DNA from: Methanobacteriota archaeon
GTDB lineage: Archaea; Micrarchaeota; Micrarchaeia; Anstonellales; J096
Length of the DNA stretch: 29,385 nt
NCBI GenBank assembly: GCA_003694965.1
Contig: RFJG01000064.1
Span: forward strand, 1-29,385
Direction: 5' to 3'
The notes below the pieces were generated by a model. The model was not told the DNA's origin and made no database searches. It was given only the letters and a program-made list of their open reading frames with translations. The position numbers and the translations under genes are program-made. The number at the start of each line of letters is the position of its first letter. Within the stretch, counting starts at the first letter, position 1. Below, piece by piece: positions 6,969 to 29,385 of this stretch.

Positions 6969-9900
6969 GTGAAAAGGCTGTTTTTCGCATTCCTGCTAAT
7001 AAGCATGGCATTCAGCGCAAACTTATTCATAAATGCTAGTGTAGGGGAGAGTAACACGAGCGTATGGATATTCCCCTACATATTCAATTCAACATCGCCC
7101 GTTAATGCTTTCAGCATGGCAGAAATAAGGAATTTTGATTTTAAGATAAATGCAATATCGCCCGATAAGAAAGATAGCGTCAATGTTGATTGCCATAATA
7201 AGCAACTACTCTCATCTACATTGAAAGTAGATGTTGGAGAGGTTATTCTCAACGGCGTTGAATGTAGCTTTCCTACGCCAGACATACTAAAAAATGGTTG
7301 TGGCTATGTTCAAGTTAGCAGCTCCGCAAACATAGGCGGGGAATTGGTAAAGGCTGGGCCATCACAAGTCATTGCTTGCTATGAAAAATTAAGCTACCCG
7401 GACAGGGCTGTCATAATCTCAAACCAAGGGCACTATGTTGATTTCACTAATCCCATATGCTTCACGGCATTGTTGGTAGCGGCGTTGTTCATAGCTGCAT
7501 TCTATGCAAAGGGAGGAGGAAGCATAACATCATTGTATGACCTCGTCTACCCAAGAATGCTTAAGATGCCTCAAGTTGCCTACACACTAAGAGGGCCGTC
7601 TCCAATAGGGGCACTGGCAAAGGGCCTCGCAAAGGGAAAGGCAGAAGCTCTTAACGCAGCAGCGCTTAGGTTGGGTCTTGGCGTGGGAGCTAGCGAAGAT
7701 ACAGTACTAGATGGGATAAGGAAGGCAGTGGGGAAGCCAGGAGCAACCATAGAGGACTTGGCAAATTTCTTCGCTGATGAGAAGAATAGGGAAATGTACG
7801 ATGATGCATATGGAGCTTTCCGTCTCTATATGACATACAAGAATATGGGAACTGGAAGCCTCGGCATAATCGGAAATAAGAGAGTGAAGAAAGTAGAGTG
7901 GGATTGGTACAAGAAATATGCAGGAAAAGTGAAAACGGGATGGGAAAAATTGCCAAGCCATGTAAGGACGCCGATAACGTGGAGCTTCTTGCCACTAAAG
8001 CACCTCTATAGAGGAGTGAAGATGGGTTTCTGGGGGATACGGGGCGCTGCGAGGCTCGTTGGGCAGATGTCTGGCGTAGTGCCGGCAGGTGCTGGATTTT
8101 ATAGGGGGATGAAGAGAGCAGAAATTGAGAAAGGCAAAAGGATACCATTAGAGGAAGGCAGTAAGGTAAGCAAATGGATTGGCAGTAAACTCAAGGCAAG
8201 CCATATGGCTATGTCAAAAGAGCACTTGCTTTGGAATCCCATAAAACACATAAATGCAGAAGCAAAAATCGCAGAGGAAGCCTTGATGGAACAGCTCTTT
8301 ATGAACGGCCTCTATTGGTTAGCAACAGAGGAGGGGAGAGCACACTATGCCAAATACTTGGAAGAGATGGGCAACATAGACATCGTTAATAAGAAGCGGG
8401 AGGAAAATGAAAAGCACGCAAGCAATGCAAGGAAAGAGTTGGAGGAGTTCTTCAAGAGCATAGAGAAGAGGGACATAGAGAGAATATGGGAGATGACAAG
8501 AGAGCTTAATGAAGCGAACTTGGATGCTTACCTTTCTCTTGTAGGAGGTTATAGCTCAGAATATGCGGAGTTAATAGGGAAACTCAGAGACATATACAGA
8601 GAGGGAGAGGAGAACATAAGGAACCTCTACCTCTTGGATTTTGTTGCTGATGAGTATGCTGACGGCATTAGAGAACTGGGCCTCCATTCAAGGTTCAGCA
8701 AGGATGAGGACATAATAACAAGAGAGGGTCTTGGCAACCTTGCCACTGAGAGTATGTACAACTACATGGAGTATGTGTATGGTGCACCAGACTACGAAAA
8801 GGCAGCAGCCAATGGTATTGATACTGCCATAGCGGAGGCCATAAATGCGATGTATGGGATAAGCTCAGAAGGGAACAACGTTGAGAGGTACTACAGCGCT
8901 ATGGACGAGAGAAATAGTTTTAAGAATGAAATAAAAAACGCTAAGGAGCATGATGAATGGGCAAGGTCTCTATTATCAAGAGTGTTTGAGAGGGAAGGAT
9001 TTACAGTAAGCGATAGGGAGCTCTATAAGTTCCTAAGTGCTAAACAAGAGCTGAAAGAGCACATAAGAAACTTGGCAGCGAGCGAAGATGAGAAAAGAGT
9101 AATGAAAAAGTTCGCGGATTACATAGCAGTGTCAGCAAAGACAAAGGTTAGGGAGCCTTGGAAAAAGAGCGCCATAGGGAAGAGGTGGAATTTCGTAACA
9201 AATGATATGGCGAAGAAAGCTGAGAAACTATCTTCCTCGTCTGTTGGGAAGGCAATAAGCTTGTTGTTTGATGAGTCTTTCAATACAAGAGTTGGGATGG
9301 CGTCAGCATTTGTGAAAGGAGAAAGAGGATATGTTGAGGGAGCAATAGGAACTGGCAAGGTCAGGGACATAAAAGCTGTAGAAGGGGAGATCAGCAAAAT
9401 AGTAGGGGACGCCATTAGTAGGATGGGTGTTAGCGCAAGCGCCTCATACTTGGATAACCTTAAGAACACCATAATGGTTGAGATTGTGAAGCAGGGAGGG
9501 GAAAATGCCAGTGCAATAAAGAGCATAATTGAAAAGAACTTGAGGGAGGTAGCTAGAGACTATGCCCGCACTGGGAAGAAGGTAGACAAGAAGATGCTCA
9601 AAGCACTTGAACAAGAAATACATAATATGGCAAAAGACATAGAAGCGGCTGCTGGAAACATAAGTAAATCCGGCACAATAGAAGTAAGGTATAGAACAGC
9701 TCTTGATGGAGAATACTCCATCAGGATTAGGAGCCTTATGACAATAGAGGCGTCAGATAGGAATTGGAAAGGATATGACAGCATAAGGACGACGAGAGAC
9801 CTTGCTATGCATTTTATGATATATGGAGCTAAGAAGTTGGGCGAGGAGAAGAGCTTGAAGGAAGTTATGGATTACTTGAGCGATGAGAAGAACTTAACAA

Positions 9901-12281
9901 TAGATGATTGGGAGATGAACCAGAGCATAAAGAGCGGGAAGCTTGCTTGGCTGGAAGTTGCTAACAGCATGTTTATGCCTATGTTTACTAACGGTTCCAA
10001 CAACGAATCTGTTGAGACTATAAATAAGCTGTTCAAGGATAAGAGCAGTATAGCATCAAAGTTTGAGGAGAGGGTTAAGCTCGGAGGAGTACTGAATACA
10101 ATAAGCAATATACCAGACCTAAAAGTAATAGGACTTGGCCAAATATACGCTGTTGCGAGCGTTAATGGAATACTCAATGTTGAAAAAAACTTGGAGATAT
10201 ATCCCTCATCAGTTGAAGACCTAAAAAGGATCTCTGCACTTCTTGAGAAGAGGGGCGATAGCGCAGGCGCCGCAGAGGTGCTCTTATTGGTTGACAAGAT
10301 CAACGATGAGAGCTTGAGCCACAACGACAGGGCAATAGTGAAGAAGGTTATGGAAAAAACAAAATCATTGATAGAGGAAGGGGAGCTAGACTTATTTGAG
10401 GCTGCTAGGATAGGTTATAGCTATGGACACAGCACTGGAGATTACAGCCTCGTCTTTAACAAGGACATAAGCGGCGTTGTGGTAGGAACAACAAGAGAAG
10501 TTGCTGACGAGATAAAGAGGGTTGGAGAGAGCGGCACAGGAGTAGCCAACAAAGTTAGCGTCCTTTTTGAGAATATGAAAATGAAAGGGGAGATGCTAAG
10601 GCAGGGAATAGGAGAGTCGCTGGAGGCTTTCTCTTTTGCTTTGATGCCTATGAGGGATGTTGAGATTTTCATGCCATACAATGAAGTTACAAAGCACCAC
10701 GCGTTGAGTGTTGTGGAGTATTTTGAGAAGGAACTCCGCAACCTTGACAATGAAAAGGCAGGTGCCAACAGCCTCCTCTCTAAATTAAAGGCAGAGGCAA
10801 AAGCCTTGAGAGTAAAGAAAAAGAACGACCCAACAAATACATTGCTGGCAAAACAGTTGGAGGACAAGGAAAAGGAGATAGAGAGAGCAGAGAAGGAAAT
10901 AAAGAGGCTGGAGAAGAAGAAGGAAAGGATAGAAGCTAGTAAGAAGAGCATAGATAGCTATATAGATAGTATGTCGTTCTACGCAACTAGGGATAATTTC
11001 TACATATACAATGGTTGGTTTGGCTCAAAGGAGGCCAGATTAGCTAAGCAGCAGCACATGAGAGGGACATATGCGGGAGGAGCACTCCTAACTAGAGACA
11101 TAATGCATAGTCAAGGGGGCATAACACTGAGGCCATCTGAGATACCCATGGGGTTCCTTACTAGCGGAGGCATAATGTTTAAGTTGATGAAATTAGGGGC
11201 TTTCATAGGAGAGCCTTTCAGGAAGTTCCAAAAACTCGCGAGTGAGGCGCTGCTCCAACCATACATAAGCCCGTCTGGATATGATGTGAAATACGAAGCA
11301 GATAGGGAGATGATGAAAAATAGTAGGAATGCTGGCATAGACAGCGCATTTATGGAGGGAGTGCAGAGGGCCAAAGATGTATATGAGCACCCACTAAAGC
11401 AAAGAGTTGATATGGCAAGGGCTAGGTCGTTGAGAGGGTTTGTAGAAACGATAACTGGGACGTTCCTGCCCATAGGAGCAATAGCAGCGGCGATAGCAAG
11501 TGGGCCTACAGCGACAATAACTGCGGGAGTTGCATTAGGAGCCTATCCTTTAGTTAATAAGCTATTCAAGAAAATGACTGGCAGCCCTTACAGCCTCTAT
11601 GAGTGGTTCTTAGACAGGTTTAGCAAGGAGACATTCAAGACAGCTATGGATTTGGAAGACCTAACTTGGAGGGCAACTGTTGGATTGGTTGACTACTCTT
11701 GGTACTCTAGAGAGATGGGGGAGGTTATGGGAGGAGGAGCGAAGGCCATCCCTGGCTTAAGCTATCACCAATACACTAGCGGGGAGTATGCACTTAATGA
11801 ACCAACAGCAATAGCATACAATAGGATGGCCAAAAATATGGGGCCCGGTTACAATCCTTTTGAAGTGCCCGAGAATAAGTATGGCTTTGGAGCTGTGAGA
11901 TACAATAAGAGTATATTGAGGAGAGTGGAGGAGCAGAACAAGGAAATGGAAGGAACTGGTCCTGCCTACAACTTCGCATTTGGGCTTTTCTCCCCCGCTC
12001 TATTCATAAACTATCTTACGCCCAAGATAACGAGGAAAGCAGCGATGTACAGGGCTATGCCTGGCAAGGCATTGGCAAAGGACTTAACAGCTGTTGCAAC
12101 AACTGCTGCAGCAATATACACTGTTGGACCCCTTGGGCCTCTTGCTATGGGAAGCGCTTATGTGGCTGCTGAGATGGGGATACATGGAGACAAAGTGCTA
12201 TGTCCAAGGTGTAGGAAAGAGAAGAAAAGAGGACAGCACTGTCCTGTATGTGGATTTAAGCCAGCATCGCCATCTATCTAA
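6969..12281 (+). CDS. Giant (1770 aa) membrane protein: signal peptide, small Cys-containing ectodomain, TM helix, long helical/coiled-coil body, C-terminal Zn ribbon
   Basis: Signal peptide MKRLFFAFLLISMAFSA; TM CFTALLVAALFIAAFYA (~7458-7508); coiled coil ~10720-10950; CPRC..CPVC at 12201-12251. No family recognised with certainty. Confidence 0.85.
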   Translation: MKRLFFAFLLISMAFSANLFINASVGESNTSVWIFPYIFNSTSPVNAFSMAEIRNFDFKINAISPDKKDSVNVDCHNKQLLSSTLKVDVGEVILNGVECSFPTPDILKNGCGYVQVSSSANIGGELVKAGPSQVIACYEKLSYPDRAVIISNQGHYVDFTNPICFTALLVAALFIAAFYAKGGGSITSLYDLVYPRMLKMPQVAYTLRGPSPIGALAKGLAKGKAEALNAAALRLGLGVGASEDTVLDGIRKAVGKPGATIEDLANFFADEKNREMYDDAYGAFRLYMTYKNMGTGSLGIIGNKRVKKVEWDWYKKYAGKVKTGWEKLPSHVRTPITWSFLPLKHLYRGVKMGFWGIRGAARLVGQMSGVVPAGAGFYRGMKRAEIEKGKRIPLEEGSKVSKWIGSKLKASHMAMSKEHLLWNPIKHINAEAKIAEEALMEQLFMNGLYWLATEEGRAHYAKYLEEMGNIDIVNKKREENEKHASNARKELEEFFKSIEKRDIERIWEMTRELNEANLDAYLSLVGGYSSEYAELIGKLRDIYREGEENIRNLYLLDFVADEYADGIRELGLHSRFSKDEDIITREGLGNLATESMYNYMEYVYGAPDYEKAAANGIDTAIAEAINAMYGISSEGNNVERYYSAMDERNSFKNEIKNAKEHDEWARSLLSRVFEREGFTVSDRELYKFLSAKQELKEHIRNLAASEDEKRVMKKFADYIAVSAKTKVREPWKKSAIGKRWNFVTNDMAKKAEKLSSSSVGKAISLLFDESFNTRVGMASAFVKGERGYVEGAIGTGKVRDIKAVEGEISKIVGDAISRMGVSASASYLDNLKNTIMVEIVKQGGENASAIKSIIEKNLREVARDYARTGKKVDKKMLKALEQEIHNMAKDIEAAAGNISKSGTIEVRYRTALDGEYSIRIRSLMTIEASDRNWKGYDSIRTTRDLAMHFMIYGAKKLGEEKSLKEVMDYLSDEKNLTIDDWEMNQSIKSGKLAWLEVANSMFMPMFTNGSNNESVETINKLFKDKSSIASKFEERVKLGGVLNTISNIPDLKVIGLGQIYAVASVNGILNVEKNLEIYPSSVEDLKRISALLEKRGDSAGAAEVLLLVDKINDESLSHNDRAIVKKVMEKTKSLIEEGELDLFEAARIGYSYGHSTGDYSLVFNKDISGVVVGTTREVADEIKRVGESGTGVANKVSVLFENMKMKGEMLRQGIGESLEAFSFALMPMRDVEIFMPYNEVTKHHALSVVEYFEKELRNLDNEKAGANSLLSKLKAEAKALRVKKKNDPTNTLLAKQLEDKEKEIERAEKEIKRLEKKKERIEASKKSIDSYIDSMSFYATRDNFYIYNGWFGSKEARLAKQQHMRGTYAGGALLTRDIMHSQGGITLRPSEIPMGFLTSGGIMFKLMKLGAFIGEPFRKFQKLASEALLQPYISPSGYDVKYEADREMMKNSRNAGIDSAFMEGVQRAKDVYEHPLKQRVDMARARSLRGFVETITGTFLPIGAIAAAIASGPTATITAGVALGAYPLVNKLFKKMTGSPYSLYEWFLDRFSKETFKTAMDLEDLTWRATVGLVDYSWYSREMGEVMGGGAKAIPGLSYHQYTSGEYALNEPTAIAYNRMAKNMGPGYNPFEVPENKYGFGAVRYNKSILRRVEEQNKEMEGTGPAYNFAFGLFSPALFINYLTPKITRKAAMYRAMPGKALAKDLTAVATTAAAIYTVGPLGPLAMGSAYVAAEMGIHGDKVLCPRCRKEKKRGQHCPVCGFKPASPSI

Positions 12282-12288
12282 CATACGA

Positions 12289-15200
12289 TTAATCCTTGAA
12301 CCTCTTTATCCTCCTCTTGGGGATTTCCTTTTTCTTGAATAGCCTGTCCTTATAGAGGTAGAGACCAGCACCGATTGCTATTACCCCCAATACCGCATAG
12401 GGGTAGTAGTCGCTCAAGTCCTTCATTGGAGGCGCTAAGTTGGCTGCGTTCTTCTTCATCTGGGAAGTGATGCTCAACACCTTGACATACTGTCCCTCAT
12501 CCAAAGCGCTCTTCGCAAGGGAGAGGCTCTTGCCGTACTGCTCCTCACTTATGCCAGAGCTCCTCAAATAGTTCTCCGTGTTGTCTATCTCTGAAGAGGC
12601 TGCTTCCTTCAAGGAATCCTTAGCTCTGTTGATCTCCGACAGGAGGGACTCGCCTTTCTTTGTTAGCATTGCCTTTTGCCTCGCTGTTTTGGCAGATGAT
12701 ATTAGCTTAAGCTTGTTCTTGAAGTAAGAAGAGGAAAATGGCAAATATTCTTCCAGATCGTTCTTCTTGGCTTCTCTCTCCATCTCCTCGTAGCCAGCTA
12801 TGGCATCTGAGAGCTTTGCCATTACAGAAGAGTATGCCATATCTATGTCCTTGCTCTTGTCCTTGTAGCTCCCTACGATGGCCTCCGCACTATCCAGTGC
12901 CTTAGCAGCCTTAGAGAGTGAAACTATATCATACGAGCTCTTGGCCTTCCTGTGCTCTGCCTCAAACTCCTTGAAGGAGTCCTCTAGCGTTGTGTTCTTT
13001 GGCATTGATTTGAGATAGTCCTTCTTGAGGTTGTAGTATTTCTTCCATAGCTGAGATGAGGTAAGGGACACATAGCGCTTAACCCAACTCTTATCATATG
13101 TGGATGCGTTGCTAGTTTCCAGCTCCTTCTCCTTGTCTGAGAGCTCTGAAGACAAACTACTTCCAACAGAAACTGCTTTTTTGAGGTTTGCCACATCAGC
13201 CTCTATTGTTTTTTGGAGCTCTTCCTCAACTGCTTTCTTCTCCTCACTTATCTTATTGTCTTTTTCTATTGTGTCTGATAGGTTCTTAGCCTTTTCCAAA
13301 GCCACATCATAGAAGCCAGAGACCTGTAAATTCTTTATCTCCTGTAATGTGTCGTTGTACTCTGGAGCAGCTGTGCTCTCTAATGATGTGAGGAGTGTTG
13401 AGAGCTCTTTGTTGACATCGTCAACCTTTGTCTTCAATGTGAAAACATATGTTTTTCCTGCCTCAAGATTACTTAAAACAAGGGAAGAACCCTCCATCTC
13501 ATAGGATGGGCCATCCTCTACCTCATAACCATTTATGTTGACAACTGCCCTAGTTATGTCGTATTGTGGAGAGATGGTCATCTGCTCCCTGCATAGTGTC
13601 TCGCCAGAAGTTGTAGCACAGGACAACGTAGTGTTGGAGATGTCTAAGAGTTTTTTCTTTTCTAGCATTTTTATTGTGTGGAAGCCTTTGTCAAGATTAA
13701 TCGTTTTTCGCGTTCCCTTGAATTGCCCATCAACATAAACAGAGCAGTCGCAACCAACATCCAAAGTGGAGTCAACAATAGCTTCAACATCATACTCCCT
13801 GCTAAGTTGTCCCTCCTCTCCATCTGCTTCCGCACTCTCATTAAGGGAGATCTGCCTTATGAATTTGTCCTTCTTAACTATGTCAGCTGTAAGGGACTCA
13901 TACGGCTCTATGTAGGGGATCCTCCACAGTATGTTGTCTCCTGTTATGACATAGCCCCTATCAACGTTGACCTCTTCTGTATAAAACTCTCCTTGTATGG
14001 GGATCGTTTTCTCAACATCAGTGAAGCGGTAGTTGAGAGGATTAGTAATTATCGCCCTTGCTTCAAGCGTTCCTTCCTCATCTATGGAGACAAGAGGCCT
14101 ATCATACATTAGCTCTACCTTGACGGCTGAGAAGGAAGTGGCCAAGCGCTCTTCTATCGTTGATATGCTATCCTTGTAGAAATTCTCCAACTCCAACAGC
14201 TTGCCCATATTGCTCCTTATGAAGTCACTATCTACTTTTACGGCATTGCCCTCCAATGTGGTTTTCTTGGAAGCTATGTCGCTATACGTGCCAGTTGCCA
14301 TCAAACTCTCCAACTCTTCTTTGTATGTCTGAAGAGAGGAGAAGCGTGAGTAGGCCTTGGAAAGTATTGAATCCTCTACAGAAGACAACAAGGCATACTT
14401 ATCTATGTATGACTTGGAGGAGCTGTCTATTGAAGATAGTTGGGATTTCTCTAATGAAACATCCAATCCATCCTTAGATGCTCGCGATAGGAGGTCCTTA
14501 ACCTCATCAACCAATGAGAGGTACTCGTCTTTTTTCATAGGTGGTTTTGCCGCAACAGCATCCAACATGCTGTCTATGCGGACATACTCCTTATAGCGGG
14601 AGCCGAGTTTTGGTTCTCCGTCTGCATTGGAAAGCATATCCTTGTATTTCTCGACATCATAGCCTTGGGAAAGCAAGCTGTCCATCTTGGAAATGAGCCT
14701 CTCCCTGAATTTTGAGAGGACTGTCTTGGCATGCTCAACTATGTGTGGCTCTTGAGAGAGGAGCTCATTATATGTGGAGAGCCCCTCATATATATCATAA
14801 GAGTAGTTGGCAGCCCCTATTGACTCCATACTATCTATAGTTGAGAGGAAAAGTTCCGCGGATTTAATGTTATTGTCTAAGTCGTTGTATTCCTCGGCGA
14901 CTGTCTTTGTAGAGGAGACCGCCCCTTCTAAGTAAAGGGCATCTATATAGAAAGCCTCCTGCCTATATGCCTCTAACCTCTTCTCTTTCATATAATCAAT
15001 CCTCGTGGAGAGGTTGAGCTTCATCGCCTCCACATCTGTGTAGTAAGTTGCTAAATCGCTATTATATGTATCGGCCAATGAGGAAACTCTTGTTGTGAAA
15101 TTGTGCGCTTTCTCTATAATGTCAAAGGCGTCGCCAAAATAAGGATAATCCTGTCCTTCCAAGTCCTTGGATGTGTTAGTTATTGCTAAAAGCTCCCGGC

Positions 15201-16158
15201 CATTGTATTGGATAGATGAGAGCTCCTCTTTCAGCGTAGCGCAAGATACTGCCCCAGGACCTGTGTAGTCTTTGTTGCAGAAACCCCTGTTGGAAGCATC
15301 CTCATACATAGATATGAGTTCCTGCCTAGCTAAATCTGCATTCTGTATGGCTAGCGACATCGCATCTTGTGTACCTGCCCACGCAAGCTTGTACTTGTCA
15401 GAGTAGAGCTTACACGATGTCTTGGCATCTGTTATAGAAGAGAGGCCGTCCAACACAATTTGGCCTACATCACTCACAAGAAGCACGGGGTTTGCTGTTG
15501 CGATGGCTGCAGACATTAGTAGGAAAGATGGCAACTCAGAGGATGTCAAGGAACGTGTGTTGCCAGAGCTAACAAGCCTATAATGTGTCGTGTAATATGT
15601 ATGGGTCTTATTGTTTACTGTCTTCGTGTGGCTTGTCTCGTACGTATCAACATAATAGCCAAGGGATGGCTCCATTACTGAATTGTAGGAAGATAGGGAA
15701 CTAAGTTGGGATTCCGACATAGAAGTGAGTGAACTTGTTAGAGGGTCCAAAAATGAACCCTTCATATCTATGGTCTTGTCTAAGTTGAATATGAACATTG
15801 CATCACACACATTGTAGTGGGAGATGGCTGCCTGAGCCTCTGCTTTGGCAGCACTAAGGCTATCATATATGCTACTATTGAGGTATGTTGGTATGTCATA
15901 AGCAAGCAATGGGTTGAGGTTGTTCCTCGTAGCTGTCGGATTTGCTATGAGTTGCCCATCAAGGTAGGTGTAGTATTTCCAGGAGGGGTCGTTGAGTTTT
16001 AGGGTAATCTGGGGGTTGAGGGGTTCGGAGTAATTATACTGCATAGTTAGAGGAGAGCTTGTTGTTGGTGTTGTTGGTGTTGTTGAAGAGCCATTTGAAC
16101 CAGAAGCAAAGAGAAGGCTAAGCATAAGGATAAATGTCAGCATATGAGTGAATCTCAT
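12289..16158 (-). CDS. Large (1289 aa) secreted, C-terminally anchored surface protein with coiled coils and a central beta-rich region
   Basis: Signal peptide MRFTHMLTFILMLSLLFA, S/T/P linker, at least a dozen N-x-S/T sequons, C-terminal TM YAVLGVIAIGAGLYLY and basic tail KKKEIPKRRIKRFKD. Confidence 0.85.
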   Translation of the reverse strand: MRFTHMLTFILMLSLLFASGSNGSSTTPTTPTTSSPLTMQYNYSEPLNPQITLKLNDPSWKYYTYLDGQLIANPTATRNNLNPLLAYDIPTYLNSSIYDSLSAAKAEAQAAISHYNVCDAMFIFNLDKTIDMKGSFLDPLTSSLTSMSESQLSSLSSYNSVMEPSLGYYVDTYETSHTKTVNNKTHTYYTTHYRLVSSGNTRSLTSSELPSFLLMSAAIATANPVLLVSDVGQIVLDGLSSITDAKTSCKLYSDKYKLAWAGTQDAMSLAIQNADLARQELISMYEDASNRGFCNKDYTGPGAVSCATLKEELSSIQYNGRELLAITNTSKDLEGQDYPYFGDAFDIIEKAHNFTTRVSSLADTYNSDLATYYTDVEAMKLNLSTRIDYMKEKRLEAYRQEAFYIDALYLEGAVSSTKTVAEEYNDLDNNIKSAELFLSTIDSMESIGAANYSYDIYEGLSTYNELLSQEPHIVEHAKTVLSKFRERLISKMDSLLSQGYDVEKYKDMLSNADGEPKLGSRYKEYVRIDSMLDAVAAKPPMKKDEYLSLVDEVKDLLSRASKDGLDVSLEKSQLSSIDSSSKSYIDKYALLSSVEDSILSKAYSRFSSLQTYKEELESLMATGTYSDIASKKTTLEGNAVKVDSDFIRSNMGKLLELENFYKDSISTIEERLATSFSAVKVELMYDRPLVSIDEEGTLEARAIITNPLNYRFTDVEKTIPIQGEFYTEEVNVDRGYVITGDNILWRIPYIEPYESLTADIVKKDKFIRQISLNESAEADGEEGQLSREYDVEAIVDSTLDVGCDCSVYVDGQFKGTRKTINLDKGFHTIKMLEKKKLLDISNTTLSCATTSGETLCREQMTISPQYDITRAVVNINGYEVEDGPSYEMEGSSLVLSNLEAGKTYVFTLKTKVDDVNKELSTLLTSLESTAAPEYNDTLQEIKNLQVSGFYDVALEKAKNLSDTIEKDNKISEEKKAVEEELQKTIEADVANLKKAVSVGSSLSSELSDKEKELETSNASTYDKSWVKRYVSLTSSQLWKKYYNLKKDYLKSMPKNTTLEDSFKEFEAEHRKAKSSYDIVSLSKAAKALDSAEAIVGSYKDKSKDIDMAYSSVMAKLSDAIAGYEEMEREAKKNDLEEYLPFSSSYFKNKLKLISSAKTARQKAMLTKKGESLLSEINRAKDSLKEAASSEIDNTENYLRSSGISEEQYGKSLSLAKSALDEGQYVKVLSITSQMKKNAANLAPPMKDLSDYYPYAVLGVIAIGAGLYLYKDRLFKKKEIPKRRIKRFKD
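16060..16085. repeat. Coding 9-bp tandem repeat (TGTTGTTGG, about 3 copies) encoding a TTP linker
   Basis: Read directly; encodes STTPTTPTTSS just after the signal peptide of 12289..16158. Confidence 0.7.
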
Positions 16159-17507: not shown

Positions 17508-17544
17508 TGCCGTTAACGACTATGTTAGGGGCATATTCGGAAAG

Positions 17545-18378
17545 TTGGGAATAGAAGAGAGGGAGTTCCTAGAAGAACTGGTAGTTGATAGAACATACAT
17601 AAGAGTAAATACGCTCAAAGTTAGCCTAAGCAGGTTCTTGAAGAACACGGAGTTGGAGTTGTCAAAAACAGGATACAAGTACGGCTACAGAGTAGAGGGG
17701 GATGTAAAAATAGGGAAGACGATGGAATACTTCTTGGGTTACCTGCATACGCAATCCCTCTCCTCCATGATGCCCGTCCTCGCATTTAGCTCTTGGAAGG
17801 ATAACATAGAGGTGCTTGATGCAGCAGCCTCTCCTGGAGGTAAGACAAGCCAGATAGCACAACACACCTCCAACAAAGCAGCTATAACAGCCATAGACAA
17901 GAGAACGGGCAGGATCTCATTGCTAGTCTCTAATTTGGAGAGGCTCGGCGTTGTCAGTGTAAATGTAGTGAGAAGAGATAGTAGAAAGCTGCCTTGGAAA
18001 AATACATTCAACAAGGTCTTGGTAGATGCTCCTTGCTCATCCCTTGGCTCTTCATTGTTCGCATTGAGAAAGACGACACATAGGAGGGTTAGGGATATGG
18101 CAAGAGTGCAGAGGAAGATGCTCCTATCCGCATTTGATGCTCTCAAAGAAGGAGGAGAGCTTGTATACAGTACTTGCACAATAACAGAAGAGGAGAACGA
18201 GGCAGTAGTGGCCAACTTGCTAGAGAATAGGAGTAATGCCACTATAGAGAGAGTTAAGCTGCCGATAAGGCATAGCAAGGGATTAGAGAGCTATGAGTTC
18301 AGCGACAAGGTTGCCCGCATATACCCTTGGGAGGTTGAGAGCGAGGCATTCTTTGTTGCGAGGATTAAGAAGAGCTAA
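17545..18378 (+). CDS. RsmB/NOL1/NOP2/Sun family RNA m5C methyltransferase
   Basis: SAM motif VLDAAASPGGKT, motif IV DAPCS and motif VI YSTCT..EENE, with both catalytic Cys present. The start may lie upstream, since the frame is open from 17485. Confidence 0.93.
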   Translation: MGIEEREFLEELVVDRTYIRVNTLKVSLSRFLKNTELELSKTGYKYGYRVEGDVKIGKTMEYFLGYLHTQSLSSMMPVLAFSSWKDNIEVLDAAASPGGKTSQIAQHTSNKAAITAIDKRTGRISLLVSNLERLGVVSVNVVRRDSRKLPWKNTFNKVLVDAPCSSLGSSLFALRKTTHRRVRDMARVQRKMLLSAFDALKEGGELVYSTCTITEEENEAVVANLLENRSNATIERVKLPIRHSKGLESYEFSDKVARIYPWEVESEAFFVARIKKS

Positions 18379-20758: not shown

Positions 20759-22208
20759 GTTTCTTTTTTCCTTTTAGGTAGTACCAGCCACCCGCTCCTA
20801 CTGCTATCACTGCAACTATTGGCAATAGCAGGTCTTGCTTTCCCTTTTCCGGCTCTTCTATGCTCAACTCAAATTCCTTGGTAAGAGTGTATGTCTTCCC
20901 AGAAGGGTCGCTGTACTTGACGCTCACGTTGGCTTTGCCGTTGTTGACATCCTTAACCTTTATTTTGAATTGTTGGCTACTAAAATCATCTGGCTCCAAG
21001 GACCCTATGAACCTCTCCTTTTGTATGTCTAACACATCAAAGGCGTCAGAGCTAATAGCAACAGACACTCCCGAAATGCGGTAAGATGCCTTGTTTGCAA
21101 CAACAACTGAGAGGCTGTGTTCCCCTTTCTTTCTCAATGGCAATGGCGTTGCTTCCAAGAACACACCTATGGCGTTCCCTGCCTTCACTGATATGGGGAC
21201 GCTCACTTCTGTGCTCTTTTCTTTGCCTTCTTCTTTCCAGTTTATTGTGAATTTCACAGGGTTTTTTCCTGGACTCAATGTCGTATATGCGTTGACGGCT
21301 ATGCTCTTCTTTTCCCCCACTCCGATCTCTCCTATGTATAGCTCGCTTATTCCGGGGAAGACGAGGTTCTCATCCGCTTTTATGCGCACATCACTTGCCC
21401 TACTCCCCCTGTTTTCCAAGACAAGTTTTAGCTTTTCCTCCTCTTTATGCGTTATCTCTCCATCCTGTACTATTGTAAATCGCGTTGATTGCTTACTCAC
21501 TGTTATAGGCAAGCTTATGCTAACACTGTGGTCTCCTCCTATTCTATCCTTATAATCCACAACAAAGGAGACGGTGTTCACACCTTCGTTGAGGAGAGAT
21601 GCGTCGTAGCTCACATTCTTTTCCTTACATCCATCTACATCTCCCAAGAATGCCTTGCCGCCCTCTAGTGAGAGGGTTGTTGAGCTAACATATACATCTC
21701 TTGCTATGCCATTTTCAGCACACACAACCATAGATGTTTTCCCTTCTTTATTGATTTCTTTTGGGTTTAGCTCTACTGTCATTGACGGAGTCTTTACTAC
21801 CTTTACAGGTATTGATGTTCTTGTTGTGGCAACTTTTGAGTTTGTTGTGCTCCCCTTCTCAACAAGTGCAGAGCCCCCTATTTCTAGAGAGATGGAGTAT
21901 ATGCCTTCCTTTGCTTCCTTGTCTATGTTTAGCGGTATGGAAACTGCCATAGTTCCCTTGCTTATCTTCCCTATGTTGATAGTCTTTGTAGCTATTGGAG
22001 AGCTAGCTTTAACATATACTGATTCAAATCCAACAAGCGTCTCCGTACTACTTACAGGATAGTCAAAACTTATGTTCAAGTTAAGTACTCCCTGGTCTCC
22101 TGGTTCGTAACTAACCTTATCAGTGCTGTAGCTACTTACAGTTATTCCGTATGTCAAGTAGCTAACAGACAACAACAGCACAAAAAGTGCCATAATTCCT
22201 TTTTTCAT
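20748..22208 (-). CDS. COG1361-like S-layer-domain (Ig-like repeat) protein with C-terminal membrane anchor
   Basis: Signal peptide, repeated beta-sandwich motifs (IGSLEPDDFSSQQFKIKV, VKYSDPSG), C-terminal TM and basic tail, and the typical position beside a MacB-type ABC transporter. Confidence 0.85.
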   Translation of the reverse strand: MKKGIMALFVLLLSVSYLTYGITVSSYSTDKVSYEPGDQGVLNLNISFDYPVSSTETLVGFESVYVKASSPIATKTINIGKISKGTMAVSIPLNIDKEAKEGIYSISLEIGGSALVEKGSTTNSKVATTRTSIPVKVVKTPSMTVELNPKEINKEGKTSMVVCAENGIARDVYVSSTTLSLEGGKAFLGDVDGCKEKNVSYDASLLNEGVNTVSFVVDYKDRIGGDHSVSISLPITVSKQSTRFTIVQDGEITHKEEEKLKLVLENRGSRASDVRIKADENLVFPGISELYIGEIGVGEKKSIAVNAYTTLSPGKNPVKFTINWKEEGKEKSTEVSVPISVKAGNAIGVFLEATPLPLRKKGEHSLSVVVANKASYRISGVSVAISSDAFDVLDIQKERFIGSLEPDDFSSQQFKIKVKDVNNGKANVSVKYSDPSGKTYTLTKEFELSIEEPEKGKQDLLLPIVAVIAVGAGGWYYLKGKKKHGK

Positions 22209-22918
22209 CTTCTCACCTTCTTTCTTTTATGGTTATTACCATCCTTCTCAATCTTTCCATCTTTTATGTGCACAACCCTACTGCTATAAGCAGCTATGTT
22301 GGGATCGTGCGTAACAACAACGAGTGTCTTTCCTTCCTCATTCAAGTCTTCAAATATTGCAAGAACTTCCTCAGCTGTCTTTGAGTCCAAGTTTCCTGTC
22401 GGCTCGTCTGCAAGTATAAAAGATGGCTCCATTGCAAGAGCCCTTGCTATAGCTACTCTTTGCTGTTGCCCTCCGCTGAGCTGGCTAGGCCTATGTTCTG
22501 CCCTTTCTTTTAGTCCGAGGTCTGAGAGGAGCTCCATTGCCTTCCTTCTTGCTTCCTCTCTGTCTATGTCATATGCAAGGAATGGTAGCATCACATTCTC
22601 AACAGCAGTGAACGATGGCAGGAGGTTATAAGCTTGGAATACAAACCCTATCTTCCTCCCTCTGATGTCCGCTCTTGTATCCTCATCTAACTTGGAGACG
22701 TCCTTCCCATCTATTCTTATTTTTCCTCCTGTTGGCTCATCCAGCAACCCCATTATGTGGAGGAGAGTGCTTTTACCACTCCCAGACGGCCCAAATATAG
22801 ACACCATCTCCCCCTTCTTTATTGATAGGGAGATCCCTCTTAATGCAACTGTCTCAACATCTTCGTTCCTGTAAACCTTCTTTATGTTCTCTAATTCGAT
22901 TACTGCTTTGGCACTCAT
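22205..22918 (-). CDS. ABC transporter ATP-binding protein (LolD/SalX-like)
   Basis: Walker [10 protein letters not shown], signature LSGGQQQRV, Walker B ILADEPT, H-loop VTHD. Confidence 0.97.
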
Positions 22919-23274
22919 GCTACCAACTCCCTGAGGAATTCCCCTATTGGGTTATTGTTGAGGTATTTCTTAAGGCGCTTGAGGACATCTTTACCTCTGC
23001 TACTAGCTTTATAGAGGACTCTTCTCCCCTCCTTTCTCTTTGTGACGAGCTTGAGTTTTTCCAACTCTGCCAACATAGGGTAGATGCGCGATGCCTTTAC
23101 AGTGCCCAAGTCAAGGGATTCCATCCTCTTAATTATGCCATAGCCGTGCATCTCCTCCTTTGAGAGCATCCACAGCAATAGTGAGAAGTAAAACTTCCTA
23201 ACTATGAGTTGTGACATTGGCTTTTTCTTATCTAAGAATAACTTGTGAACTCTCCTTATGGCATCTCTATCCAT
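22915..23274 (-). CDS. PadR-family transcriptional regulator
   Basis: LLWMLSKEEMHGYGIIK..IYPMLAELEKLKLV..RRVLYKASSRG matches the PadR wHTH pattern. First gene of the ABC operon. Confidence 0.9.
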   Translation of the reverse strand: MDRDAIRRVHKLFLDKKKPMSQLIVRKFYFSLLLWMLSKEEMHGYGIIKRMESLDLGTVKASRIYPMLAELEKLKLVTKRKEGRRVLYKASSRGKDVLKRLKKYLNNNPIGEFLRELVA

Positions 23275-23330: not shown

Positions 23331-26300
23331 TCAACTAAAGAAATCAACGAGGCCTTTTTGTTGCACCCTCTCATCCTCAAAGACGCTCGCAATCTCCTCC
23401 TCTACTAACTTGAGTCTCTGCTTTAGGTAGTTGGGCAGGGAGAACCTATCAGCCAACTCTATCGCTCTTCCCAAATACTTCTCTATCCCTCCCTTATGTA
23501 TAGTTAATGTTAGCTCTCCATTGCACTTGAGGCACTTTCCCCTTAGCGGAGGCCTATCATATTTCTCATTGCAATGTGTGCACCTGAACTTCTGTCTTGA
23601 GAACTTCCTAAGGTTTCCATATATGTCAGGTATGAAGTGGCTAAGTATTACCTTTTCCATTCCATCCTGGAGGTCAACAGCCCTTATCTTCCTCATGACA
23701 TCAACTTCAGCTTCTATTTTTTCTGGTATGCTCTTTAATCGCGTGTATGTTGATTGCAGTGGCCCTAACTGGAGATAAGCCCCTTTATGCGTGAACCCTA
23801 TCCCTTGGTAGGGGTTTTCTTTGTCTAGCAAGCTCTCAACGAGCTCCATCTTGACATTGTAGGCCATCTCTCCTTTCCAGGCCTTTTCATAGAGCTCATA
23901 CGGATACTCGCTCACTATCTCCATGACGTGGACCTCGTCATCAACTTCCTTGGGGTTTATCTTCGCATTGAGTATGAGTGGAGAGTCCATAGTCCCTCCT
24001 CTTGACACATAGAGGTATTCCTTAGAGAAATTTATGAGTCCATCTAAGAGTAACATTATGGCATCCTCATCCCCATCTGCGTTCCTCCTCCTCGCACATA
24101 TGAGATAGGGGTGTGCATAACCAACTCTTGCTTGTGTAAACCCTATTATCCTGGCAAGGTTACCTGCTGATGTGTGAGGGGATAGGCTTATGACAAGTTT
24201 TCCTATCAGCCCTTCTTTGTCCTCTATATTGTAGTAGGGCTCCATTCCATAGAGCTTAACGAGCATCTCATCTATGAACTTGGCTGCGTTTATGAGGCTC
24301 TCAACCATCCCTTCTGAAACTAGTATGTCTTGAGGGTAGAGCTCAACTATCTGCTCCCCACTAACTAACTCTTCTCCATATACATCTTTTGTGTAGCCGA
24401 GCTCCCGCAGTTTTTCTATAGGTACTCCTATGTCTTTAGCATAGAAATGTGTTAATGGCACATCAGTTGCATCGAACCTTACTGTCCCATCCCTGAATAC
24501 ATAGAGGTTGTGTTTTGCCCTAAGGAAGCCTTTCTCAAGCCTCTCGCTCATCTTCATCCTGCTCATAAGGCCCTTAACTCCCTTTATCTCGTGCTGGCTC
24601 CCTATGAGCTCCCTGCACTTATCATACATCTCAACAAATGGGAGGTCCATCTTTTTTACTTCAAGAGGGACACTCATAGACTTACATAGAGGACAGAGTA
24701 GGTATGGCACTTCCTTCTTGCATTTCTTACAATAGTATGTCATCGCCTCCACAGTGTTCAGCCTTTCCATCTTTTTTACTTTGAGAGTATTGTAGAGCTT
24801 GCTCAAGCTTCTCTGCGGCTGTCCTGTTGGGAATAGGACGTGTGGCTTTCCTTCCATTTCCCTTAGCTTGGCCTTTTCGGGCCTCCCCATCCTTCCTCCG
24901 ACATAGGAGCCGCCCTTGTCCTTTATCTCTACTCCGCTTATTGATGACAAGACCTCTAATATGTTGTCTTTCTCCTCTATAGTTTTGGCAAGCTCCTCCC
25001 TGCTTGCACATAGCAGTGTTCTTTCTAATATTTCCTTACTCTCTTTGCTTAACTTAACTACTCCTTCAACAACTTTGTGTTCCAAGCCAAGCAGCTCTAA
25101 GAGCCTCTTACCTTTCTTTATTGCTTCCATACTGCCAGAAACATAGTCGTAGAGCTCGAGGAGCTGCTCTTTCTTTAGTTCTGTCCAGTAAGGAAGGGCT
25201 ATGGGGTGGAGCGCTATGTTGTGTTTTTTTGAGAGTTCAAAGGCCTCCTCAACACTTGCTGGCTCTCCTATGTCAAGGCCGGCTTTTTTGACCTCTGCTC
25301 TCCATATCTCCTCAACATAGCCAGGCGGCAGTAGGGGTGAGTTGCTTTTGAGGAAGTCCCCAAAACTTATGAGGAGGTCTCCGAGGTGGATTATCTCTAC
25401 AACATCGTCCTTTACCTCTAAGGCTCTCTCGTATGTCGTGATTTTTTCAACGCTCCCATCCTTAAGCTTGACTATGGGCCCTTCTATGTCAGTGCAAGAG
25501 GCAACAACAGCACCCTTTCCTGGCTTCTCCAACTTTAGTTGAGTTCCATATGCTAGGAAATTGCCGCTTAATACCATCGTCGCTGGGTGGAGATTCTTGC
25601 CCATGATGCCAGTTGTGAATGTCCTCCCATAACGGACACGGAATCCTCCTCTCCTTGATGGGTAGGAGAAGACGGGCCTCCCTATAACTAAGCCGTCGAG
25701 GTAGACAGCTCCCTTGTCCTCTGCTTTCTTGACAGGAGTTAGCTCCTTAATGAACATCCATTCCTTTAAGCTCAGCATTTTTGCATACTTAGCAACCTTG
25801 CTCGCCTTTTGCAATAACCCCTCACATATGACAAGAGCTACTCCACTCCTTACTCTATTGGTCTTAATCCTCGGGTGGTCCCTGTTGACAGAAACCTCCA
25901 CCTCTTCTGTTGGCTCTCCATCTATGCATACTGGGCTGTTCTTTAAGACCTCCTCTATGTGGCTCTCTGGCGGGAAGTACTGCAACCTTGCAGCAGCCTT
26001 ATCATAGAGCTGTATCTCTTCCAAGACTCTCTTTATCTCGTTGGCATCTGGCTTAAACGCTTCTATGTTGAGCTCCCTCCTTGCGAGGTCTGCCAATATG
26101 ACAGTTAAGGCGGCAACTGTTCCTCCTGCGCTCCTTATGGGCCCAGCATAGTAGACTGCAACATAATCCTTGCCGTTGTAGTTGTTGATGGAAACCTTTG
26201 CTATTCCTTCTGTTGGGGCTACGAGGACACCTTCTGTAAGTATTGCCGTCCCTACACGCACTGCCTTGTCAAGGAGCTCCTCCCTACTACCTTTTATGAG

Positions 26301-26552
26301 TTCTCCTCTTGCTATCTCTTTTGTTATCTCAAATGCTATCTTTTCCCTATTGAGCCCAGCCTTCTCCATATTCCGTATGGCATCCGCTATCCCTTCTATT
26401 TCCAGTAATCCCTCTACTCTGCTCGCAACATCCCTCGTTATCCTTATCTCAACCTCTTCCTTTGGGTCATAGCCCTTTTTCCTCGCTTCCTCCGCATAAG
26501 CATAGGCTCTTTCCAGCTCTTTTCTCATCCTCTCAAAATAGTCCTCAATCAT
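23331..26552 (-). CDS. polC: DNA polymerase D large subunit DP2, intein-free
   Basis: EGVLVAPTEGI, YAGPIRSAGGT, FRDGTVRFD, SPHTSAG, catalytic DGDED, C-terminal Zn finger CTHC..CLKC and PIP-box-like QKGLVDFF. Confidence 0.98.
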   Translation of the reverse strand: MIEDYFERMRKELERAYAYAEEARKKGYDPKEEVEIRITRDVASRVEGLLEIEGIADAIRNMEKAGLNREKIAFEITKEIARGELIKGSREELLDKAVRVGTAILTEGVLVAPTEGIAKVSINNYNGKDYVAVYYAGPIRSAGGTVAALTVILADLARRELNIEAFKPDANEIKRVLEEIQLYDKAAARLQYFPPESHIEEVLKNSPVCIDGEPTEEVEVSVNRDHPRIKTNRVRSGVALVICEGLLQKASKVAKYAKMLSLKEWMFIKELTPVKKAEDKGAVYLDGLVIGRPVFSYPSRRGGFRVRYGRTFTTGIMGKNLHPATMVLSGNFLAYGTQLKLEKPGKGAVVASCTDIEGPIVKLKDGSVEKITTYERALEVKDDVVEIIHLGDLLISFGDFLKSNSPLLPPGYVEEIWRAEVKKAGLDIGEPASVEEAFELSKKHNIALHPIALPYWTELKKEQLLELYDYVSGSMEAIKKGKRLLELLGLEHKVVEGVVKLSKESKEILERTLLCASREELAKTIEEKDNILEVLSSISGVEIKDKGGSYVGGRMGRPEKAKLREMEGKPHVLFPTGQPQRSLSKLYNTLKVKKMERLNTVEAMTYYCKKCKKEVPYLLCPLCKSMSVPLEVKKMDLPFVEMYDKCRELIGSQHEIKGVKGLMSRMKMSERLEKGFLRAKHNLYVFRDGTVRFDATDVPLTHFYAKDIGVPIEKLRELGYTKDVYGEELVSGEQIVELYPQDILVSEGMVESLINAAKFIDEMLVKLYGMEPYYNIEDKEGLIGKLVISLSPHTSAGNLARIIGFTQARVGYAHPYLICARRRNADGDEDAIMLLLDGLINFSKEYLYVSRGGTMDSPLILNAKINPKEVDDEVHVMEIVSEYPYELYEKAWKGEMAYNVKMELVESLLDKENPYQGIGFTHKGAYLQLGPLQSTYTRLKSIPEKIEAEVDVMRKIRAVDLQDGMEKVILSHFIPDIYGNLRKFSRQKFRCTHCNEKYDRPPLRGKCLKCNGELTLTIHKGGIEKYLGRAIELADRFSLPNYLKQRLKLVEEEIASVFEDERVQQKGLVDFFS

Positions 26553-27973
26553 AGGCTTCTCACATCCACAATGGACAGCTTTTTGCTGTTGAGGTTATAC
26601 ACTGGAATGTTGCCCGGCGTTGGTATATGCCCTTGTTTTATCTGGAAAGGCGTCTGGTCTTGGAATGTGCCTGAATTGAGCATAAGGACTCCCTTATAGA
26701 GGGCTTGGCCATTCTTGTGTATGTGGCCACAATGGAAAACATGGGGCACTTTGTCCATAACCATGTAGTCTATCTCTTCTGGCACTATGGGATTTGTCCC
26801 GTATATTGGGCTGAGGTGCCTCCTCCTGAAATACTCCCTCATTATTGGCTCTACCTTATGGTATGTTAGATGTCTTATGTTAGCAACAAGAGAGTCCATA
26901 GATGTGCCGTGGTATATCAAGTGCTTAAACCCTTCTATGTGGACAACGCCAGGGTTGCCAACCAAGTAAGGCTTCTTATTGGAGAAGAAACTTTCCTTAA
27001 GGGCGGGCATCGGTTCAGCCCTCCTCACAGCGTCGTGGTTTCCCGGACTTACTACAACATCTATGTAGTCTGGCAACTCCTCCAGCAACTTGTCGAATAA
27101 CTCATACTGCCCGTATATGTCCTTGACGCTCAGCTCCTTCTCCTGACCCGGATATATTCCTATGCCGTCAACAACATCACCAGCTACGACGATGTATTTT
27201 ATTTTTCCGGCTAGCTCCTTCTTTGTTGAAGGTTCCCTTATCCAAGACATAAATCTGTTGAGCATATCCTCCAAGCAAAACCTGCTCCCAAGGTGTATGT
27301 CAGAGAGATATGCAACAGCCACATCCTTCTCTATTGTTGGGTGCACTACCCTCTCTCTGACATCTGGGAACTCCAAGTCCTCAACCAGTAGGAGTTTGTC
27401 CTTGACTTTGCAATACACTCTTATCGTGTCTTCCTTTGTTACGAGGGCTATTTTGTCCATAACTCTCTCGTCATTCTTGTTGGCAACAGCCACGGCTTTT
27501 CCAGTTAAGTCCTCCAAGGATAGTACTGTGTTGCCGCTCCTGCTCTCTCTTTTCTCGCTAACCATTGCTATTATGCTAACCTTTTCTCCATTTGCTTTTG
27601 ACAAATCCCCTATGAGCATCTCACTATACTCGCTCGTGTGGGGGCCGAAGAGGCTCCTCATCCTCTTGAACCTATTCTGAAAATACCTTACGAAATCCTT
27701 GGCACTTCCTTTTGTCCTGCTCTTCCCAGTGACATCTCTCTTGTGGTCAATTATTATGTCGCTCTCATACTCCTTAGCTACTGGTTTGTAGTGGCTCGCT
27801 CTCTTTACCTCTACTATTGGTTTTTTGATGACCTTGATGGCATTCTCTACATCGTCCTTTCTTACTATGGAGATGTCTCTCTTTTTTAGGTACTCCTCTA
27901 CCTTTGCCTTCATCTCTTCTTCGAGGTTTTGCATAGCTTCGTGAGCTTCTACATTATACCTCATCAGAGCCAC
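26549..27973 (-). CDS. polB: DNA polymerase D small subunit DP1 (3'-5' exonuclease)
   Basis: OB fold followed by calcineurin-like motifs SDIHLGS, GDVVDG, GNHD, YHG and GHIH. Overlaps polC by 4 nt. Confidence 0.97.
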   Translation of the reverse strand: MALMRYNVEAHEAMQNLEEEMKAKVEEYLKKRDISIVRKDDVENAIKVIKKPIVEVKRASHYKPVAKEYESDIIIDHKRDVTGKSRTKGSAKDFVRYFQNRFKRMRSLFGPHTSEYSEMLIGDLSKANGEKVSIIAMVSEKRESRSGNTVLSLEDLTGKAVAVANKNDERVMDKIALVTKEDTIRVYCKVKDKLLLVEDLEFPDVRERVVHPTIEKDVAVAYLSDIHLGSRFCLEDMLNRFMSWIREPSTKKELAGKIKYIVVAGDVVDGIGIYPGQEKELSVKDIYGQYELFDKLLEELPDYIDVVVSPGNHDAVRRAEPMPALKESFFSNKKPYLVGNPGVVHIEGFKHLIYHGTSMDSLVANIRHLTYHKVEPIMREYFRRRHLSPIYGTNPIVPEEIDYMVMDKVPHVFHCGHIHKNGQALYKGVLMLNSGTFQDQTPFQIKQGHIPTPGNIPVYNLNSKKLSIVDVRSL

Positions 27974-27983
27974 GGCGCTTACC

Positions 27984-28235
27984 TCAGCCCTGCTTTATTG
28001 ACTCAAGAGAGGAGAGTATGTTTAACAGCTTTATCCTCATATGTGATGCTATGTTCGGGTCTTCAACTGTTTTCTCTATGGCGTAGACTGCTGCGGAAAC
28101 CCTGAGGCTCTTGTCCTCGTCTTTCTTAAGTAAGTTCTTCTTAGCTTCTTCAAGGCAGGATTTTATGTTTTTTGAGGCAAAACTATCATTCAAGGCATCA
28201 TCTATCAATAAGATAACGTTTTCAAGCTCTTCCAT
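27984..28235 (-). CDS. UPF0147 family protein
   Basis: Pattern NIK..EEA..L..S.RVSAAV..IE..EDPNIASH.R..L.ILS.LE. ATG28235 follows GGTGG and fits the promoter spacing; the alternative start is 28250. Confidence 0.82.
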   Translation of the reverse strand: MEELENVILLIDDALNDSFASKNIKSCLEEAKKNLLKKDEDKSLRVSAAVYAIEKTVEDPNIASHMRIKLLNILSSLESIKQG

Positions 28236-28268
28236 AAGACCACCAAACATAAGTTATGGGCAGTAAGC

Positions 28269-28276
28269 TTTTAATA
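28269..28276. promoter_or_regulatory. AT box between divergent genes
   Basis: TTTTAATA on + lies 20 nt before ATG28297 and reads TATTAAAA on - toward UPF0147. It lies between and partly overlaps two TAAGCTT copies (28264 and 28288). Confidence 0.4.
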
Positions 28277-28296
28277 TTGGCTGTAGATAAGCTTAT

Positions 28297-29385
28297 ATGC
28301 TGTCTAGCCGTGCTGCGTTCTTAACACTGACATTGCTCTTCTTACTAATGAGCATATTACATGCGGCTTCTGTATGTCCCTATGAGTATAAGGCATCTAT
28401 TTACTCAACTATTACACTCAACCAGAATGGAGACATGCTATCTGTTAAGCTAACAGCATTCCAGAATGCTGAGTTCAGGGATGTCCAATACCCTACTTTC
28501 CTTTTCTTGATTAGCGGCACTAGCGGCTGTAGTGAGAGCAAGCCCTGCCTCTATAAGGGCTTGGCTGATCCGTCTGGCTACTTTGTTTTCAACATAACAC
28601 AAGCAGGAGATGTTATTGGCGAGAACTTGAGCAAGGCAACATTCTCTGTTATTTATCCTTATTATAATGCGAGCAATTCCTGTAAGTTGGGAGAAGCCCT
28701 TGCTTTGACAGAGCCTTCTTCTCCTAGCCAATGGACGAGCTCTTTTTCCAACATCCCTTCTGTAGATGTAAACAATGCACTTTCTTCAATTCCTTGCATT
28801 CCAACATCTTCAATAGATAGTGGTAGCTGCCCCTCCCTTAGTTCGTGGAGGATAGCGCAGGTCATAGACCCCCAACAAGGGCCTATTGATACATCTGTTC
28901 TTGTACCTGCTCCATCAATATATACTACGAGTCCTCCAACTCCTCCAGCTTCTTCCCTTTCATTTACATCAACCTCTTCTGATTTCTTCTGGCCTTTCTT
29001 CCTTTGCACCTCTATATTTGGCATATTGTTGGCTGCTGCGTTTGCTTCTGGCCAAAACCCATTCTTTTGGTTTACATTGCAAGCAACGCGGAGGAGCACT
29101 TACAGGAGTGCAGGCATGACTTCTTTTAGGCACTTCCAAAGAGCCGGATATGCTTATGGGAAGAAAGGTTTGTGGGTAGCTCAACAATCTGCAGGGACAA
29201 CATTGGGAGCGTTAAAGACAGCTTTTGCGTGGCTTGCTGCCACTGGTAAGTTGCAGGAATGGTTGGGCGGAGAAACTAAGGACAAGGACAACGACACACA
29301 GACTGAGGAAACTTCTTCAACGAATGGGGACAAGAAGAAGACAAAAGAGACTAAACAAGGCGCCAAGTCAGGTTTTGCAACTAAA
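28297..29385 (+). CDS. Signal-peptide, single-TM membrane protein, 3'-truncated (at least 363 aa); missing from the ORF track
   Basis: Translated by hand with no stop to the window end: MLSSRAAFLTLTLLFLLMSILHA signal peptide, Cys-containing ectodomain with NIT/NLS/NAS sequons, S/T/P linker, TM FWPFFLCTSIFGILLAAAFA, then a charged tail. Confidence 0.85.
   Translation, partial: MLSSRAAFLTLTLLFLLMSILHAASVCPYEYKASIYSTITLNQNGDMLSVKLTAFQNAEFRDVQYPTFLFLISGTSGCSESKPCLYKGLADPSGYFVFNITQAGDVIGENLSKATFSVIYPYYNASNSCKLGEALALTEPSSPSQWTSSFSNIPSVDVNNALSSIPCIPTSSIDSGSCPSLSSWRIAQVIDPQQGPIDTSVLVPAPSIYTTSPPTPPASSLSFTSTSSDFFWPFFLCTSIFGILLAAAFASGQNPFFWFTLQATRRSTYRSAGMTSFRHFQRAGYAYGKKGLWVAQQSAGTTLGALKTAFAWLAATGKLQEWLGGETKDKDNDTQTEETSSTNGDKKKTKETKQGAKSGFATK

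Follow-up and report, generated by a model that had tools for sequence, protein, structure and literature searches.

Paralogous giant membrane proteins of an Anstonellales genome are probable subunits of a type IV secretion-like machine whose genes lie scattered

Ced in Sulfolobales and Ted in Thermoproteales are chromosomal derivatives of type IV secretion systems (T4SS), and the parts of the two sources used here show DNA import for Ced (PMC9905601, PMC11868833) and a likeness of the CedA N-terminus to the CedA1 pilin (PMC9905601). Patescibacteria hold a lineage-wide T4SS, mostly without a relaxase, in small host-associated cells and with arrays of paralogs (PMC12102498), and the SPEARE-type giants of nanohaloarchaea are single-pass membrane proteins of DPANN archaea tied to a VirB4-type secretion locus (PMC10266531). 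Here we analyzed a 29,385-nucleotide stretch of DNA (the window), which is the entire contig C15 (RFJG01000064.1) of a 644-kb, 87-contig, 85% complete archaeal genome (G000, GCA_003694965.1) from a hot-spring metagenome, and which encodes two giant membrane proteins, here called G and T. We found that G and T are paralogs kept mostly as two copies per genome, and that elsewhere in the class their genes recur beside arrays of VirB6/CedA-like candidates. The giants are probably anchor or scaffold subunits of two paralogous T4SS/Ced-like modules and would have been displaced here by rearrangement.

The proposed machine is like Ced and Ted in being chromosomal and archaeal. Its VirB4/HerA-like ATPase has a counterpart in theirs, and its putative VirB6-like proteins and VirB2-like pilin would correspond to CedA/TedA and to the Ced and Ted pilins. 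However, Ced and Ted have one or two CedA paralogs, whereas about 13 candidates occur here in two arrays, and the consulted parts of PMC9905601 and PMC11868833 describe neither giant single-pass proteins nor Cys-rich lipoproteins, both of which are present here. What sets the system apart from Ced and T4SS is its duplicated arrays of about six VirB6-like paralogs, its Cys-rich lipoproteins and its giant single-pass subunits. The Patescibacteria system differs in being bacterial and in having arrays of VirB2 pilins rather than VirB6-like proteins, and no giants of the G/T kind are described for it (PMC12102498). SPEARE proteins consist of a ~9000-aa extracellular body of Ig repeats and a cytoplasmic VirB4 domain (PMC10266531), in contrast to the short ectodomain (~150-210 aa) and long tail without an ATPase match of G and T. 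We rejected the idea that G and T are SPEARE-type giants, given that the transmembrane (TM) segment begins at aa 162 in G and aa 234 in T and that no ATPase family matched G or two full-length T homologs. Kinship of the machine with Ced and T4SS is supported but not proven. Our literature search found no paper on VirB6 arrays of Micrarchaeota or on the G/T giants, and the conjugation-like (T4SS-like) cluster that holds the giants is apparently undescribed. This novelty is provisional; a comparative paper from 2024-2025 on T4SS genes in DPANN may exist.

G starts with a signal peptide and a ~145-aa ectodomain, followed by a single TM segment (aa 162-180) with the family motif, and ends in CxxC..CxxC. 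The tail of ~1590 aa is predicted to be cytoplasmic, with the terminal cysteines as a putative Zn-ribbon. T also has a signal peptide and the family motif, with its TM segment at aa 234-252. The reading frame of T runs off the contig and covers the first 363 aa of another giant, the same-genus orthologs of which have 1764 and 2202 aa; the remainder was not found on other contigs of the genome. In the structural model of the T ectodomain (predicted local distance difference test, pLDDT, 82), an Ig-like sandwich that carries inserts precedes a single TM helix. A fold search with this model returned generic Ig/macroglobulin-type sandwiches (best Z 6.4) and no specific relative.

BLASTP of G against T detected no kinship (best E 0.5). 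Profile-to-profile comparison with HHalign, however, aligned both the TM/juxtamembrane motif (P 95%, E 2.9e-8) and the ectodomain (P 92%, E 5e-7), and a joint G/T profile matched exactly two places in the genome, namely G and T. These alignments indicate that G and T are true paralogs, with homology detected over the TM motif and the ectodomain. A first, sequence-only reading of the window had proposed two paralogous single-pass membrane proteins, a claim borne out by the profiles though invisible to BLASTP. Pfam and NCBIfam searches with G and T gave no consistent family, and no enzyme or toxin domain was found by these or by a PDB search. The PDB sequence search with a profile of the G C-terminus returned only DP2 (E 0.0017), which probably reflects the Zn-ribbon cysteines. 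A word-based protein search and an Atlas feature search with G yielded G itself or nothing usable; its relatives were obtained by genome searches.

Of 110 genomes of the order, 109 have the G/T family, usually in two copies; it also occurs in several other families, and the joint profile matched 596 clusters in a 50%-identity library. Giants range from ~700 to 3900 aa, with tails that are highly variable in both sequence and length, and some members of the G subtype are marked by the C-terminal Zn-ribbon motif. Such tails, together with Gly/Ala-rich hydrophobic stretches in G near aa 1491-1525, would suit cargo, that is, membrane-tethered polymorphic effectors or toxins delivered by a neighboring T4SS-like machine. 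We consider this unlikely. The two copies per genome are very constant, unlike effector repertoires, the giants carry a Sec-type signal and a conserved TM anchor, the domain searches above found no toxin or enzyme, and no recurring immunity-like neighbor was seen in giant loci. Nor is the idea that the giants are a split, extended VirB6 supported, since their TM motif is not homologous to the array proteins (HHalign P 0.3%) or to the pilins (P 10%).

Several single loci show further variation around the giants. In G006 (L060:958-9230) a short T of 772 aa is followed by near-repeated open reading frames (ORFs), each 150-330 aa long, whose strand alternates and which may be what is left of a tail region after decay or shuffling. 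A protein of >2450 aa, related to C47:4961-7219 of our own genome, is encoded two genes before T in genus g6 (L058:12622-19998, L061:3-7481). A 1744-aa protein with C-terminal repeats that look ankyrin-like by eye lies ~6 kb from G in G002 (L021:11432-16663), and in family f9 (L210:12834-13142 and about eight similar loci) the gene right after the T giant encodes a small PadR-like winged-helix protein.

We then examined 96 neighborhoods of giant genes sampled across the class. A family of ~350-aa multi-TM proteins, encoded in arrays, occurred 303 times in 68 of these loci, along with LipA (40) and LipB (25), two Cys-rich lipoproteins that are homologous to each other (P 98.5%). An array or lipoprotein gene was near 77 of the 96 giants and was the immediate neighbor of 69. 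Two layouts recur, array-LipA-T and divergent array-G-LipB: the T subtype normally stands beside LipA and a six-gene array, and in most other families the G subtype is followed by LipB and flanked by an array. The middle region of LipB, shared with LipA, resembles a glycosidase-type barrel by eye (e.g. L189:3640-5877), and a PDB search with LipB found no match. The distribution is nested, in that 266 of 301 genomes of the phylum have the array family and families lacking arrays also lacked giants (f16, 0/7; f20, 0/5; f17, 0/15).

For one array protein encoded in this genome, a structural model (pLDDT 86.6) had as its top two matches DotA (Z 9.3, root-mean-square deviation 8.6 over 273 aa) and TrwI/VirB6 (Z 8.8, deviation 6.8 over 238 aa), which were the only full-length matches near the top. 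Foldseek returned TrwI with probability 0.93 and E 0.14, and the Atlas search returned TrbL_3 (TM-score 0.51) and a cluster in which 23% of members are named CedA1. The latter fits the likeness of the CedA N-terminus to the pilin. These fold matches are concordant but sub-threshold, with scores that are modest for a helical protein, and they suggest that the array proteins are VirB6/CedA-like. Upstream of arrays, four of six small pilin-like genes matched TrbC/T4SS_pilin (E 3e-4 to 2e-2, under curated cut-offs), and in families f13, f14 and f15 the arrays have pilin-like genes on one side and a VirB4/HerA-like ATPase on the other. In f15 a giant shares one block with the array, a VirB4-like ATPase and pilin-like genes. 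The f15 giant (L258:8944-14649, L259:5703-11063, L292, L293) begins at the TM segment without an ectodomain and comes after a ~2700-aa gene; one f15 ATPase has 1047 aa, perhaps with an intein.

Alternatively, the same modules might make up some non-T4SS part of the envelope, for example a docking barrel or a scaffold at the surface, with the VirB6 likeness reflecting helical packing only. Z scores of 8.8-9.3 are within reach of unrelated helical bundles, Pfam searches on 80 array proteins gave no sequence-level VirB6/TrbL match and no consistent family, and a 21-nm barrel of unknown identity exists in the envelope of Microcaldus ARM-1 (PMC11329633). Against this, VirB6-family proteins came at or near the top in three libraries, and pilin-like and VirB4-like genes flank the arrays. 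We therefore hold such a structure to be improbable, slightly more so than the cargo explanation.

All parts of the proposed machine are present in this genome, scattered among housekeeping genes. We found 13 array genes on contigs C27, C33 and C67, LipA on C27, LipB pieces on C20 (3-578) and C60 (2312-2989), and three pilin-like genes on C16 and C21. A VirB4/HerA-like ATPase (C28:1310-2878) passes the AAA_10, P-loop_TraG and DUF87 cut-offs, a designation in which VirB4 and HerA were not separated by a tree. As for the marks of a conjugative element, the only relaxase family tried, PF03432, was not found in this 85% complete genome. In the same-genus genome G003 the order is DP2-DP1-UPF0147-T-array, with an array of the C27 type. 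Because T there directly precedes that array, contig C27 probably follows the window. G no longer stands beside its array either in this genus or in a number of related genera, but still does so in G006 of the same family.

Together these observations are consistent with a chromosomal T4SS/Ced-like machine that would be formed by two modules, the pilin-like genes and the VirB4/HerA-like ATPase. Module 1 would comprise about six VirB6/CedA-like proteins, LipA and T, and module 2 four to six such proteins, G and LipB. Each giant would be docked by its conserved TM/juxtamembrane motif on a membrane core of VirB6-like proteins, its small Ig-like ectodomain would face outward near the lipoprotein, and the long, fast-evolving tail may serve as a cytoplasmic scaffold or substrate adaptor. 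LipB, with its SLT-like domain, would be the VirB1 analogue.

Several observations weigh against this interpretation. The window holds no array or lipoprotein gene, and in the first seven close relatives examined G was likewise apart from the array; physical membership of the giants in the machine therefore rests on other lineages. Families f13 and f14 have arrays but only 7/129 weak giant matches, so that some versions of the machine do without giants, which were added in a lineage and do not serve as a contact device everywhere. Families f13 and f14 are probably the Micrarchaeales, which include the cultured symbionts. The giant loci in the sample are related to one another, and a T-based profile was used to choose them. 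None of the VirB6, pilin and SLT matches reaches the usual thresholds, the last being an SLT transglycosylase family match, with a QES motif, in 10 of 20 LipB proteins. Finally, two other envelope families encoded in the window, S and a COG1361-like protein, share the coarse distribution of the giants (in the order, largely absent from f13/f14), and an unlinked functional tie between them and the giants stays conceivable.

As to what the machine does, we lean tentatively, by analogy, towards contact-dependent uptake from another cell, probably of nucleic acid as in Ced. We favor this because Ced imports DNA and because this genome, 85% complete, yielded neither PurC nor PyrF; a GGGP-synthase-family gene was found in it. 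Protein export is a less probable job, and DNA exchange among kin somewhat less probable again. Predicted host dependence varies among Anstonellales and is not guaranteed (PMC12892359). A stronger version seems doubtful to us, if less so than either of these other jobs: that G and T are obligatory scaffolds of two separate T4SS-like machines in the same cell, each with a core in which about six different VirB6-like proteins form a hetero-oligomer, together with a Cys-rich lipoprotein, and used by Micrarchaeota outside Micrarchaeales to attach to hosts and draw material from them.

The sequence-only reading had joined the giants with S, the MacB/COG1361 module and an intramembrane protease in one envelope or host-contact system clustered in the window. 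It is true that all these envelope proteins fall within one 29-kb window, that G is near mcm and the SPP-type protease in two same-genus genomes, that S and the COG1361-like protein are common throughout that order but seldom found in f13/f14, and that the MacB module is near a T giant in one distant genome and S near a G giant in one. However, near the 96 giants we found the MacB/COG1361 module once, S once, the protease twice, mcm twice, DP2 once and DP1 twice, compared with a chance expectation of ~1.2 of 96 loci per single-copy gene, and both protease/mcm co-locations come from the same genus. In near-complete relatives the envelope genes of the window are separated by tens to hundreds of kb or sit on different contigs; in G001, for example, the COG1361-like gene lies at 104 kb, S at 180 kb and G at 234 kb, and T is on another contig. 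Homologs of S and of the COG1361-like protein are kept throughout the order and were also weakly matched in f16, where arrays and giants were not found. MacB_PCD was present in 13 of 14 control genomes. The protease follows mcm, within 8 kb of it in 12 of 14 Micrarchaeota, 5 of 7 Altiarchaeota and 0 of 8 other archaeal loci, and a giant is present in only two of those loci. The protease-mcm pair is old, is conserved in Micrarchaeota and Altiarchaeota and does not depend on giants. A single clustered system is thus very improbable, more so than any other explanation considered here. The giants probably do belong to an undescribed machine, as the host-contact proposal had it, but not to one made of the genes grouped in the window; S, the MacB module and the protease would work separately from them.

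The remaining features of the window are collected in the table. In a quick MCM tree the window nests in Micrarchaeota (SH-aLRT 100), next to the same-genus genome G001 labeled Ca. Anstonellales, in agreement with the DPANN placement expected earlier. Neither a tyrosine integrase (PF00589) in the 85% complete genome, nor a tRNA in the window, nor terminal repeats were found, and assembly depth is roughly even (5-11 across 9400-29385). For these reasons the genes look resident, as had been claimed. The mcm and PolD DP2 and DP1 genes are all present as described, and their interleaving with the giants is genus-level gene order: same-genus genomes share mcm-SPP near G, gatD-NOL1 beside S, and DP2-DP1-UPF0147 before T. 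The window is probably an ordinary piece of Anstonellales chromosome in which several unrelated envelope genes came together by chance, a judgment made jointly with that on the giants.

Coordinates of genes and gene groups in the 29,385-nucleotide window
Feature	Position	Strand	Remarks
Presenilin/SPP-type protease	1753-2550	-	YD/GLGD/PAL motifs
mcm	2555-4585	-	
Giant G	6969-12281	+	1770 aa
S	12289-16158	-	1289 aa, signal peptide and C-terminal anchor
gatD and NOL1/NOP2/Sun RNA methyltransferase	16296-18378	+	housekeeping
PadR, ABC ATPase, anchored COG1361-like protein, two MacB/FtsX permeases	18375-23274	-	
PolD DP2, DP1, UPF0147	23331-28250	-	housekeeping
Giant T, 5' part	28297-29385	+	363 aa, cut by contig end

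S belongs to a family that is conserved in the lineage and mostly single-copy, and neither Pfam searches on 11 homologs nor Pfam and NCBIfam searches on S itself gave a consistent family. S had been described as a stalk-like anchored glycoprotein. Its signal peptide and C-terminal anchor stand, but the label of glycoprotein is unconfirmed, since the ectodomain has 14 sequons against 11.3 expected (p 0.22). The MacB module has MacB_PCD and FtsX domains over cut-off plus a cognate ATPase. It is complete in itself, unlinked to the giants, and belongs to a common type of MacB-type ABC module, like other MacB/FtsX transporters with PadR and an anchored accessory protein; we found nothing unusual in it. 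The module is present as described, but the COG1361 label comes from anatomy and context, with only sub-threshold Pfam and NCBIfam matches. The multi-TM protease was also identified correctly: it matches PF06550 over cut-off and shares the YD, GxGD and PAL motifs with the archaeal presenilin homolog PSH. It differs from PSH in falling below the cut-off of the NCBIfam equivalog (46.7 versus 125 bits) and in being kept near mcm.

Three smaller ORFs of the window have homologs elsewhere. The edge ORF at 3-848 is the end of a longer protein, the G001 homolog of which has 722 aa and lies ~5 kb from G there. An orphan at 4716-5549 has a homolog ~4 kb upstream of an array in a distant genome (L275:8356). 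At 5601-6414 an adenosine-specific kinase (PF04008) is followed by a 110-aa ORF, and the two are neighbors in G005 (L075) as well.

At the level of proteins, little is known of how DPANN archaea make contact with other cells and feed on them. The window adds the paralogy and two-copy rule of the giants, and a negative result for S, the MacB/COG1361 module and the protease, which removes a false lead. Since the genes of such a machine can scatter across the chromosome, the neighborhood in a single genome misleads. Our data suggest that an unnamed giant family of nearly all sampled Anstonellales is tied to a T4SS/Ced-like locus, a candidate for cell-contact machinery that thereby offers named targets for proteomics and cryo-tomography.

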